Positions 54,073 through 57,051 of a stretch of 64,000 nt of DNA are shown here, piece after piece (position 1 is the first letter of the stretch; each line of letters begins with the position of its first letter). The position numbers were made by a program, and so were the translations under genes. The notes beneath the pieces were generated by a model. The model was not told the DNA's origin, did not search any database, and saw nothing but the letters and a program-made list of their open reading frames with translations. The DNA is taken from NCBI GenBank assembly GCA_964583765.1, contig CAZOWW010000003.1:6552-70551 (forward strand). The letters run 5' to 3'. This DNA is from an uncultured Kineosporiaceae bacterium. GTDB lineage: Bacteria > Actinomycetota > Actinomycetes > Actinomycetales > Kineosporiaceae.

Positions 54073-57051
54073 TCAGTGAAGGAGCACGTTCAGCAGGACG
54101 AAGACCACCGGGGCCGAGGGCAACAGGGAGTCGAGGCGGTCCATGACCCCCCCGTGGCCCGGCAGGATGCTGCTCATGTCCTTGATGCCCAGATCCCGCT
54201 TGAGCAGGGACTCGGCCAGGTCACCGAGCGTCGCCGAGACGACGACCGCGGCTCCGATCACCGCCCCCACCCAGAGCTGGCCGTGCAGCCAGTAGTGGAT
54301 GCTCGCCGACCCACTGGCCATGCAGGCCACGGTCGACCCGACGAAGCCTTCCCAGGACTTCTTGGGGCTCACCTTGGGCGCCATCGGGTGCTTGCCGAGC
54401 GTGGCGCCCACGGCGTACCCGCCGATGTCGCTGGAGATGGTCACCAGGACGAAGACGAGCACCCGCACCGGACCTTCGGAGCTCGCCAGCAGCAGGATCG
54501 CGAAGCCTGCGAGGAACGGTACGTAGGCCGCGGTGAACACCCCGGCCGCCACATCGCGGACTGCTCCCCCGATGCCGTCGATGAGCCGCCACAGCAGCAT
54601 GCCGAAGGCCGTCAGGGAGAACGAGACGAGCAGCCCCTCCTCACCCGCCACGTAGGCGGAGATGAGCATGCCGATCGACCCGACCGCGAGCGGGATCACC
54701 GGGATGGTGATGCCCTTGCTGGACACCGCGCCGGCGATCTCCCAGACGCCCACGACGACCGCGAAGCAGGCCAGACCGATGAAGACCTCCTTGCGGAAGG
54801 CAAGGCTGGCGTAGACCGCGCTGCCGAGCAGCAGGCCCACGCCGATGGCCGCGGGCACGTTGCGCCCGCCTCGGCGCCGCGTCGGCACGGGTGTGGGCGC
54901 GGTCACCGGGGGCGTGCGGTCCTTGGCAACCGCCTGCTTCTTGCCCGGCTTCTCCTTGGGCGCCTTGTCCTTCGCGCCGGAGCCGCGTCCGGACCGGCCG
55001 GTCGTCGCCCCGGCGCCGGCGATCGCCTCGTCGAGCGAGGCGAAGACCTCGTCGTCCACCGCCGGCGGCATCCGCAGCAGGTCCGTCTCCTCGAAGGGAT
55101 CCGGAGCCGCCGGTGACAGGCGCGAGGGTGGAGCCGGCGGAACGGGGACCCCTGCACGGGCGGACGCCGGGGCTCCGCGGCCCTGCTTCTGGCCACCCTT
55201 GCGCCCCCGGGCCGACTGGCCGGAGTGCGCGGGCGGGAAGACGTCGTCGACGGAGGCGATCTGGATCGTCTGCTCCCCGGTGTCCGGGGTCGCGCCACGG
55301 GCAAGAGAGCCGGTTCCGGCAGCGGCGGCCGAGGCGGCCCCGGGGACAGCGCCCGTGCTCGTGGCCGCCGTTGCGCCTGTGTGCCGACGCCAGGCGGCGG
55401 TGTCACCGAACTGATCCCCACCCAGCGGCCCGGTGGCCGGCGAACGGTCGGACCCCGCCCGGGGCTGGGACAGCCCGCTCGGAACGGACGGCGCGCTCCC
55501 CGTGGCACCGCCGCGGGCGATGCCGAGACCGCTGTCCAGGTCGATGAATCGATCAGGACCCGACTCCGACGCGGCTGCCGACGGTTCGGACCGCGAGAAC
55601 CGGGCGGCCACGTCGTCCAGGGCCAGCCAGGAGCCCGTGACCGGATCGACCCGTCCGAGCTGGCCGGTGTAGAGCCCCGGCGGCGTGGGGGTCGTTCCCT
55701 GGGCGTCGTACCGCACCGTGCCCGCGTCGTACCGACCAGGATCGTGCTCGACTCCCCGCCGGCTGCTTGGCACCTGGCTCGGTGACGACGGCGGGTACGA
55801 CGGGGTCCCCGGGTAGGACGAGCCGGCACCCCTGGGGTCCTGGTGGCCGGCGGGGTTCTGGTACCCACTGGGGTCTTGGTAACCACCGGGGCTCTGGTAG
55901 CCACCGGGGCTCTGGGACGACGCACCGGGGAGGGAACCGGTGGCGGGGTCCCACGGCGCGGTCGAGTCGCGGTACAGCGAGTCGCGGTACGAGGAGCCGC
56001 TGCCGGACGACGGGCGATAGGGCGCGGGCTCCGGCGCGGGCGGCCGGATCGGGGACGTGTCCAGCGCGTCCGGGTACACCGGGGCCGGAGGGGAGTAGCG
56101 AACCGGTCCTGCCGCCGTCGGCGGGTACTGCGAGTAACCCGCACCCGAGGGAGCGGAACCGCCGTAGCGGGACTCGGCCGCGTAGGGATCGCCGCCGGAC
56201 CGAGGGCCGGGGGCCGCTCCACCGGACTGCCCGTAGCCGCGGTTGACCGGATACGAGCCGGTGAAGGGATCGGCGTCGTACCCGAGACGACCGCCGGAGG
56301 TCATCGGGCCCGAGGAGGGAGGCGGGTAGGAGCCCGTGGCGGGCGACGCCGGCGGGTAGGAGCCGGAGTCCCGAGCGCTCGGCAGGTAGGGCTGTGACGG
56401 AGCGGCCGGGTAGGACTGGGAGGAAGACGGGTAGGGCTGCGACGGAGCGGCCGGGTAGGACTGCGACGGGTAGGAGCCCGTCCGGTAGGGATCCGGAGCA
56501 CCGGAGGTCTCGTACCCTCCGCCGGTCTCCCGGGCCCCGCCGGGCCGCGACTCGGCCCTGCGGCCCGTCTCACCCTGCACCGGCTGGGAGCCGGGGACCT
56601 GGGGCATGGAACCACTGCGCCCGGCGTCGAACAGTCCGGGACCACCCGGCGCCGGTCGCGCCGCGGGCGCCCCGAAAGCGCCGGTGTCCGGGGGCGCTGC
56701 GGGCGCGCCGAAGGCGGACCCTCCGGAGCCACCCCCGCGTCCTCGGGCCCACCAGGGCATCGCTCCCTCGGCCGGGGCATCGCCTCTGCCCGCGCCGGGA
56801 GCACCACCGCCCGGCCCCTGCCCCGAGGCCGGCCAGCTCGACTGCGCGGACCCCTGGGCGGGCGTCGGGTCGGGCCAGGATCCCCGCGACGGCGGGAGGT
56901 CCGAGCTCGGCCGGGAAGGCGTCGGCGACTGCACACCGACGATGTCGGCCCACGACTCGTCCCCGTCCGCGCCTGGCGCGGACGGGGGTTCGGCGCGATC
57001 CGGTCGACGGCGACGCAGTGGCTGTTCGCCCGGCCAGGGTCCTTGATCCAC
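54073..57051 (-). CDS. cdsA: phosphatidate cytidylyltransferase (CdsA) core fused in-frame to a low-complexity N-terminal region of about 660 aa; start uncertain (GTG 57051, or internal ATG 55071 for the core only)
   Basis: The C-terminal 270 aa or so are canonical CdsA (...[10 protein letters not shown]..., ...[16 protein letters not shown]...). The frame has no stop back to 57051, which is 1 nt after the frr TAA. See the findings for the coding evidence on the extension. Confidence 0.7.
   Translation of the reverse strand: [992 protein letters not shown]

Follow-up and report, generated by a model that had tools for sequence, protein, structure and literature searches.

A long open cdsA frame beside frr in a Kineosporiaceae bacterium likely encodes CDP-diacylglycerol synthase with a large disordered cytoplasmic arm

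All major bacterial phospholipids derive from CDP-diacylglycerol, the product of CdsA, an enzyme that is commonly regarded as a membrane core with no appendages. The stretch of 64,000 nucleotides (nt) analysed here, referred to as the window, comes from an uncultured Kineosporiaceae bacterium and holds a cdsA open reading frame (ORF) of 992 codons plus stop, which begins at a GTG codon preceded by AGAACTGCTCGAGGTATAAC (Table 1). The gene stands in the order tsf-pyrH-frr-cdsA, recognised from Pfam matches on the neighbouring genes, as it does in other Actinomycetota, where frr encodes ribosome recycling factor. We regard it as likely that the frame is one real gene, coupled to frr, whose product joins a canonical CdsA to a cytoplasmic disordered arm of ~630-725 residues, a fast-evolving and weakly constrained tether. 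An earlier note, made from the DNA letters alone, had described this frame with its GTG 1 nt after the frr TAA, an internal ATG at 55071 and two alternative minus-strand ORFs (54903-56222 and 56301-56936); the ORF listing and the frr coordinates bear out the first, the ATG is present as codon 661, both alternatives exist and are Arg-rich, and every peptide that was quoted occurs in the translation. Between frr and the conserved core of the enzyme, an Rfam search returned no RNA family, a terminator scan found none on the coding strand, and a promoter scan found no internal promoter with a sigma-70 consensus, which is ill-suited to Actinomycetota.

The region upstream of the core that was tested for coding spans 54877-57051(-), or ~725 codons. 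It contains 0 stops in the cdsA frame and 2, 3, 3, 20 and 4 in the other five, while in first-order Markov simulations of matched composition 7.4 stops occur on average and the probability of finding 0 stops is 0.0002. An open frame alone proves little in a window of ~70% GC, where spurious ORFs 600-1400 codons long are frequent; the antisense of a phosphoketolase gene joined to rlmN, for example, produces a spurious 1315-amino-acid (aa) ORF (49187-53134(-)), which shows that ORF length by itself is unreliable in this genome. The codon statistics are more specific to the frame. GC at codon positions 1, 2 and 3 amounts to 522, 520 and 613 of 725 codons over aa 1-725 (0.72/0.72/0.85) and to 0.72/0.73/0.84 over aa 1-662, with position 3 separated from positions 1 and 2 at a chi-square p of ~1e-8, and GC at the third position (GC3) is the highest of the three in nearly all 50-codon windows of the arm. 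The high GC at the second position (GC2) arises because Pro, Gly, Ala and Ser codons are so frequent. A synonymous-codon score, which is independent of amino-acid composition and was trained on 18 clear genes of the window, ranks the cdsA frame first among all six frames in seven of seven arm segments; its closest rival is the antisense frame that shares its third positions, and that frame has 20 stops. The GC content of the region, 74-81%, is higher than the 71-75% of local intergenic DNA. Judged by these signals, the ~725 codons upstream of the core are almost certainly translated. The in-frame fusion of the extension to CdsA that had been proposed at the outset is borne out by the lack of stops, by GC3 and by the synonymous-codon score, and frame-specific GC3 periodicity is present across the arm with the exception of codons 1-97. 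The earlier hand counts of GC3 (about 80%) came close to the measured 0.84-0.85, whereas those of GC2 (about 62%) were too low against the measured 0.72-0.73.

The C-terminal core is strongly supported as a complete, canonical CDP-diacylglycerol synthase with nine predicted transmembrane (TM) helices, in keeping with the CdsA membrane core first read at the end of the ORF. The sole Pfam domain in the 992-aa product is PF01148, matched with E 4.5e-54 and 184.5 bits against a cut-off of 24 over profile positions 4-263 of 264. A regular expression for S-x-[LIVMF]-K-R-x4-K-D-x-[GSA]-x2-[LIF]-[PGS]-x-H-G-G-[LIVMF]-x-D-[RK]-x-[DE], which we take to be the PROSITE pattern of the phosphatidate cytidylyltransferase signature, matches at aa 948-974. 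These columns are invariant across an alignment of 45 homologues, and R727, G729, R730 and N731 of an RGGRN motif ahead of the core are nearly so. In an AlphaFold2 (AF2) model built on the same alignment, the predicted local distance difference test score (pLDDT) exceeds 90 over aa 732-990, and the top Foldseek matches of the core are the T. maritima CdsA structures 4q2g and 4q2e (E 4e-9; target-normalised TM-score 0.76-0.80 over ~265 columns), the first of which is also matched by phmmer at E 3e-17. Because Pfam, signature, AF2 and Foldseek cover aa ~732-990, the core is complete and everything before ~aa 727 is additional. The cut-off of the NCBIfam equivalog PRK11624 (E. coli-type CdsA) is not reached (97.6 bits versus 385, with only the C-terminal half aligned), as is expected for a distant actinobacterial orthologue, and family membership is unaffected.

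The arm (aa 1-725) consists of 16.1% Pro, 15.6% Gly, 13.7% Ala, 12.6% Ser, 7.2% Arg, 6.1% Asp, 5.4% Thr, 4.3% Gln and 4.0% Tyr, with 0.3% Asn and a net charge near zero, and can be divided into three segments followed by a basic juxtamembrane stretch (Table 1). The first segment contains a basic patch (aa 10-19) and a 16-residue duplication, while all 29 Tyr of the arm fall within aa 180-461, in the second. AF2 gives aa 1-725 a pLDDT of 30-50 and no secondary structure, which agrees with the low-complexity, disordered extension described beforehand, as a prediction that is weak because the alignment carries no information for the arm. No hydrophobic 19-mer precedes aa 732, and a Tat or Sec signal peptide, suggested by an N-terminal RRRR, was rejected, as no hydrophobic h-region follows. 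The T. maritima enzyme (TmCdsA) forms a homodimer and has its N-terminus on the cytoplasmic side (PMC4083444). The arm should thus also be cytoplasmic, since a positive-inside flank precedes TM1 and no hydrophobic segment occurs earlier, an inferred topology that is the same as the one suggested in the earlier note, and a dimeric CdsA would carry two arms per enzyme.

Table 1. Features of the cdsA locus in the window, given in window coordinates.
Feature	Coordinates	Strand	Basis or remark
frr (ribosome recycling factor), upstream gene	57053..57610	-	Pfam PF01765 RRF, E 4.1e-62; TAA stop 57053-57055
GAGG Shine-Dalgarno-like element inside the end of frr	57058..57061	-	6 nt upstream of the GTG start (-10..-7)
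Full cdsA ORF	54073..57051	-	Favoured start GTG 57049-57051, 1 nt past the frr stop
Arm segment 1, aa 1-179, Gly/Ala/Pro/Ser-rich with spaced Trp/Phe	56515..57051	-	Translation, repeats
Alternative start ATG, codon 98, giving an 895-aa protein	56758..56760	-	Preceded by GAGGGAG
Arm segment 2, aa 180-462, Tyr/Pro/Ser/Gln/Gly-rich	55666..56514	-	Aromatic positions
24-bp tandem DNA repeat, ~3.7 copies, SYPAAPSQ units	56385..56469	.	Tandem Repeats Finder (TRF); protein repeat aa 195-223
18/36-bp tandem DNA repeat, ~3.6 copies, GGYQSP units	55828..55915	.	TRF; protein repeat aa 379-394
Arm segment 3, aa 463-680, less repetitive, Ser/Ala/Gly/Thr-rich, acidic island at end	55012..55665	-	No Pfam match; AF2 pLDDT <50
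Basic juxtamembrane stretch, aa 681-731, 14 K+R vs 3 D+E, RGGRN at end	54859..55011	-	Charge count, alignment
CdsA catalytic membrane core (CTP_transf_1), ~nine TM helices (predicted)	54085..54846	-	PF01148 at aa 736-989
Phosphatidate cytidylyltransferase signature	54130..54210	-	aa 948-974, regular-expression match

How this architecture compares across Actinomycetota was examined in 80 loci with a CdsA core, taken from a genome scan, the best of which is from Kineosporia rhizophila (65% identity). In 79 of the 80, frr lies directly upstream of the cdsA core, and across these 79 loci ~10 to 590 codons separate the frr stop from the conserved entry of the core (GRN-LPAAIGVG). In 28 of the 29 loci whose gap measures 240 nt or more, 90% or more of that gap is open in the cdsA frame, a level that the other two same-strand frames reach in 8 and 10 loci. 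Arms that can still be aligned as DNA (Streptomyces, Blastococcus and Jatrophihabitans) differ by 116 indels, 84 of which have a length divisible by three. The translated gaps are of low complexity and often tandemly repeated, with units such as ERPVEQPV (L002), QPDRAQPDR (L071), PEPD (L004) and SPTDAG (L024). In K. rhizophila (L001:4583-6000; NZ_JAJSOH010000022.1), five tandem copies of a ~33-aa unit (GTPARGFGRTGTPPQGERSRAGAAPWDEADPRP) lie within a cdsA frame that is open for ~473 codons from the frr stop and whose ATG overlaps that stop at -4. In public gene calls, the closest CdsA relatives, at 60-69% identity and drawn from Kineosporiaceae and metagenome-assembled genomes (MAGs), often have 450-616 aa with non-conserved Pro/Ala/Gly/Ser/Arg-rich arms, and more distant matches run to 585-800 aa; among them are Kineosporia mesophila (P0015, at least 580 aa), P0117 (616 aa), Thalassiella azotivora (P0080, 488 aa) and P0003 (800 aa). 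The premise that a long arm is unusual for CdsA is therefore not supported in the form in which it was put. What is conserved is the open frame (28 of 29); the length varies (~10-590 codons), and the sequence of the window arm found no matches. At ~725 aa, the window arm is the longest example seen, ahead of ~530 aa in P0003 (judged by eye) and 476 aa in L001, and its sequence appears to have no relatives. Its composition is also lineage-specific: of the 37 arms with a length of 150 aa or more, 4% Tyr is reached by the window arm and by that of P0078 (one of the 36 others) alone.

The isolation of the arm sequence holds across several kinds of search. Neither tblastn nor blastp of the arm against the 80 related loci and their predicted arms found anything at E 1e-3, an exhaustive phmmer search of 1.84e9 representative proteins gave no match, nor did a scan of metagenome DNA with aa 440-725, and a word-index search with the Tyr-rich block against an index of 5.8e9 proteins at E <= 1 was likewise empty. 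A word-index search with the whole protein returned 3 matches and was swamped by low-complexity words. Exact look-up of the 992-aa product and of nine alternative-start products found none in public collections, and no relative exceeds 69% identity in the CdsA core. A borderline similarity of the arm to a Streptomyces N-terminus (E 0.011 in a tiny database) was not relied on. An arm that has no homologues and is made of high-GC, repetitive, error-prone DNA could in principle be an artefact or a recent fusion, in which a separate Pro-rich gene was joined to cdsA by assembly or sequencing error or by stop loss. We find this hard to credit, given that no free-standing homologue of the arm was found among the 1.84e9 representative proteins or in metagenome DNA, that frr and cdsA are not separated by a further gene in any relative, and that Kineosporia, several MAG lineages, Jatrophihabitans and Pseudonocardiaceae each show this uninterrupted arrangement independently.

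The reading of one long gene, which we prefer, has several observations to contend with. Codon bias is weak in the arm (0.05 versus 0.38 bits per codon in the core), GC3 is 0.84 versus 0.94 in the core, and the margin of the cdsA frame over its antisense competitor in the synonymous-codon score is small. Codons 1-97 are flat in GC by position (77, 73 and 77 of 97), and their lack of GC3 periodicity makes the coding region less secure at its 5′ end than elsewhere. The coding claim is a prediction from sequence, and the weakness of the AF2 disorder call has been noted above. Most other arms contain 0-1% Tyr and some are strongly acidic; the composition of the arm is unconserved, which argues against a single shared biophysical function. 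Finally, NCBI annotates the CdsA of K. rhizophila, the nearest cultured relative (P0021), at just 318 aa, so that annotation pipelines differ on whether such arms are translated. That short form, picked by the Prokaryotic Genome Annotation Pipeline (PGAP), is one of the points that would fit a different gene model, where CdsA is made from an internal start only (~codons 661-732, 260-330 aa) and the 2 kb upstream is untranslated or decaying, its openness a by-product of high GC; an ATG does exist at codon 661, and the window, at 70% GC, has many long spurious ORFs. We consider this model improbable. It would have to accommodate a stop-free frame with a chance probability of ~2e-4, frame-specific GC3 and synonymous-codon signals that extend across the arm, and a frame kept open in 28 of 29 relatives. 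No internal candidate has a properly spaced Shine-Dalgarno (SD) sequence, starts at codon 732 or 738 would remove the nearly invariant R727-N731 motif, and a non-coding stretch of 2 kb within a conserved operon would exceed the GC of local intergenic DNA (74-81% versus 71-75%). The annotated start of K. rhizophila CdsA is instead probably too far downstream, and start annotation of cdsA is inconsistent, because this protein is called at 318 aa despite a frame that stays open for ~790 aa while K. mesophila CdsA is called at 580 aa or more.

Where translation of the long gene begins is a narrower question. Among the 79 related loci, 21 have their first in-frame start overlapping the frr stop (-4 or -1), and in most of the others it lies within a few tens of nt of that stop; together with the +1 position of the GTG in the window, this fits translational coupling to frr, and the start is probably the GTG at 57051. 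The same fused gene could, with a smaller likelihood that still deserves attention, be translated from the ATG of codon 98 (56760), which would give an arm of ~630 aa and leave an untranslated spacer of 292 nt after frr. This ATG has a strong SD, with GAGGGAG ending 3 nt before it, stronger than that of the GTG, which counts against our preferred start; the flat GC of codons 1-97 points the same way, as does a slightly negative synonymous-codon score for aa 1-100 (-0.03). Even so, the cdsA frame is still the top of the six frames in aa 1-100, codons 26-75 have a GC3 of 0.92, the Trp-containing low-complexity style runs on upstream of codon 98, and relatives nearly always start at or beside the frr stop. 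Weak evidence on the same side comes from the basic patch at aa 10-19, which is located where relatives have LPSRRxLR.

If the long gene starting at the GTG is taken as the basis, cdsA would be translated in coupling with frr as one long protein. The comparison of loci suggests that the space from the frr stop to TM1 stays coding while its length and sequence turn over between genera, and that arms grow mainly as short GC-rich repeats slip and expand. The arm would take no part in catalysis and would most likely serve as a weakly constrained cytoplasmic tether, whose properties are set by composition rather than exact sequence. A CdsA dimer would then show two arms, each with ~40 regularly spaced aromatics and a few short acidic-aromatic islands of the DPF type, and weak multivalent self-association or contacts with partners could cluster the enzyme in the membrane.

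A few short motifs recur among arms that cannot otherwise be aligned. A basic motif, [LP]-P-S-R-R-x-[LR]-R, is found 8-20 residues from the N-terminus (P0007, P0013, P0014, P0028, P0048, P0058, P0077, P0086, P0089, P0090, P0117, P0072 and L001). The basic patch of the window (56995-57024) lies at the same offset as the LPSRRxLR of 11 relatives, to which its resemblance is weak; a profile of the motif places it correctly at -0.7 bits, a score that shuffles equal in 614 of 2000 cases anywhere and in 25 of 2000 when position is constrained. One subfamily (P0007, P0010, P0048, P0058, P0077, P0086, P0089, P0090 and P0117) shares a mid-arm island, RR(R)-[IT]-[LIV]-S-x-P-P-V-S-F-D. Profile hidden Markov models (HMMs) of relatives' arms, built for this RRILSxPPVSFD island and for the whole arm, detected nothing in the window arm, and a match to the island seen by eye was rejected. 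The acidic-aromatic tripeptide DPF, often DPFP, occurs in the arms of P0015, P0018, P0063, P0006 and others. In the window arm it is found twice, at aa 261-263 and 651-653 (56263-56271 and 55093-55101), where 0.1 would be expected. Over 48 non-redundant arms, SRR occurs in 21 against 6.9 expected and DPF in 8 against 1.5, enrichments that are not robust once multiple testing and residual homology are taken into account, with DPF failing the multiple-testing correction. DPF may be a short linear interaction motif, and we treat both tripeptides as leads only.

The even placement of aromatic residues bears on whether the arm does more than tether. Evenly spaced aromatics are the pattern described for sticker-spacer domains. 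Between aa 160 and 470 there are 31 aromatics with no adjacent pairs and a coefficient of variation (CV) of spacing of 0.52, against 0.90 +/- 0.15 expected (P = 4e-4), in a region that was picked after viewing the data and to whose regularity short repeats contribute, which again tempers the case; when the entire arm is taken, the evenness loses significance (P = 0.17). This pattern, the Tyr/Gln/Ser/Gly-rich block in which it lies and the bivalency provided by a dimeric core (PMC4083444) would suit a functional, membrane-tethered and condensate-forming (prion-like) module that clusters CdsA and organises phospholipid synthesis, along the lines suggested in the earlier note. There is also precedent, in the clustering of an actinobacterial membrane protein, the M. 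tuberculosis ABC transporter Rv1747, driven by its disordered region (PMC9312465), and in the N-terminal disordered region of bacterial IF2, for which recent preprints report a link to phase separation (PMC11838494). We think such a module doubtful, as the arm is 16% proline overall and only 4.3% Gln, Tyr-richness recurs in just one of the 36 long arms besides it, sequence conservation could not be detected and codon bias is weak. Classical prion-like domains are Pro-poor. High proline and weak codon bias would fit weakly constrained expansion equally well. The more explicit proposal that the arm is a selected sticker-spacer tether, in which ~30 evenly spaced Tyr and the DPF islands gather dimeric CdsA into nanoclusters and draw in the enzymes that act next in phospholipid synthesis, is more speculative still. 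If true, a filamentous or zoospore-forming actinomycete would possess a membrane microdomain for making lipids, and the hypervariable arms of actinobacterial CdsA would become an unrecognised class of fast-evolving regulatory tethers, analogous to the extension of the Plasmodium enzyme discussed below.

Other genes of the window show related or merely adjoining features. IF-2 (5217-8507(-); Pfam IF-2, GTP_EFTU and IF2_N) has a Pro/Ala/Ser-rich region of ~400 aa, at aa 67-467 of its stop-to-stop frame, and is thus a second housekeeping protein of the window with a long disordered N-terminal region. In rlmN (49187-50398(-); Radical_SAM and RlmN_N), a low-complexity insertion lies shortly past the CxxxCxxC motif, a sign that GC-rich repeats may tend to expand within conserved genes throughout this genome. 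The usual adjacency of cdsA and rlmN is split by a phosphoketolase gene on the opposite strand (XFP_N/XFP/XFP_C, 50696-53239(+)). Between this gene and cdsA stands a lone antitoxin gene of the Phd/YefM family (53420-53695(-); Pfam E 1.8e-8), for which the nearby ORFs of 40 aa or more offer no obvious toxin as partner, and a gap of 377 nt (53696-54072), apparently non-coding, separates it from the cdsA stop.

On the reading of one long gene with a weakly constrained arm, long and fast-evolving disordered cytoplasmic arms would be a clade-wide feature of an essential lipid enzyme, and cdsA start-site annotation in high-GC actinomycetes would need correcting. The arms form a natural series, from ~20 to 725 residues and of diverse chemistry, in which to ask whether they are functional disordered regions or tolerated by-products of repeat expansion. 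Should the Tyr-rich arm cluster CdsA, it would offer a simple bacterial model for the organisation of lipid synthesis by disordered regions; should it not, it would be a clear example of neutral low-complexity load on an essential protein. A literature search found no paper on disordered arms of bacterial CdsA, though they are visible in public gene calls.

Set against known systems, the protein most resembles the long-form CdsA of Kineosporiaceae and other Actinomycetota, with which it shares the operon position after frr, a core at 60-69% identity, and a low-complexity, often repeated arm that leads through a basic juxtamembrane stretch and the GRN motif into TM1; the window arm differs in being longer (~725 aa), in having no detectable similarity to other arms, in its 4.0% Tyr and in lacking the RRILSxPPVSFD island. 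With canonical CdsA (T. maritima, 4Q2E/4Q2G; E. coli, 285 aa) it has in common the nine-helix fold (predicted, TM-score 0.76-0.80) and the signature motif, and a cytoplasmic N-terminus and dimeric state are taken as common, while it differs by ~725 extra residues. Rv1747 and IF2 offer a likeness of another kind, a cytoplasmic disordered region on a bacterial membrane or housekeeping protein, for which phase separation or nanoclustering is reported; where Rv1747 uses folded FHA domains and a phosphorylated linker, the CdsA arm has no folded domain. The nearest parallel on the enzyme itself comes from eukaryotes. Canonical bacterial CdsA has essentially no hydrophilic N-terminus, whereas eukaryotic CDP-diacylglycerol synthases (CDS) have one (PMC7018664): the Plasmodium enzyme PfCDS, of 667 aa, has a non-conserved hydrophilic N-terminal extension of 245 aa, and TgCds1 and TgCds2 exceed 1000 aa (PMC7018664). 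Plasmodium cannot do without its extension, even though the core suffices for catalysis by itself, and the extension is cleaved off (PMC7018664). The apicomplexan proteins and the window protein are alike in carrying a long, poorly conserved, hydrophilic N-terminal extension on a CDP-diacylglycerol synthase; the former are eukaryotic, of independent origin and without sequence relationship to the latter, so that the parallel is a functional analogy and not homology.

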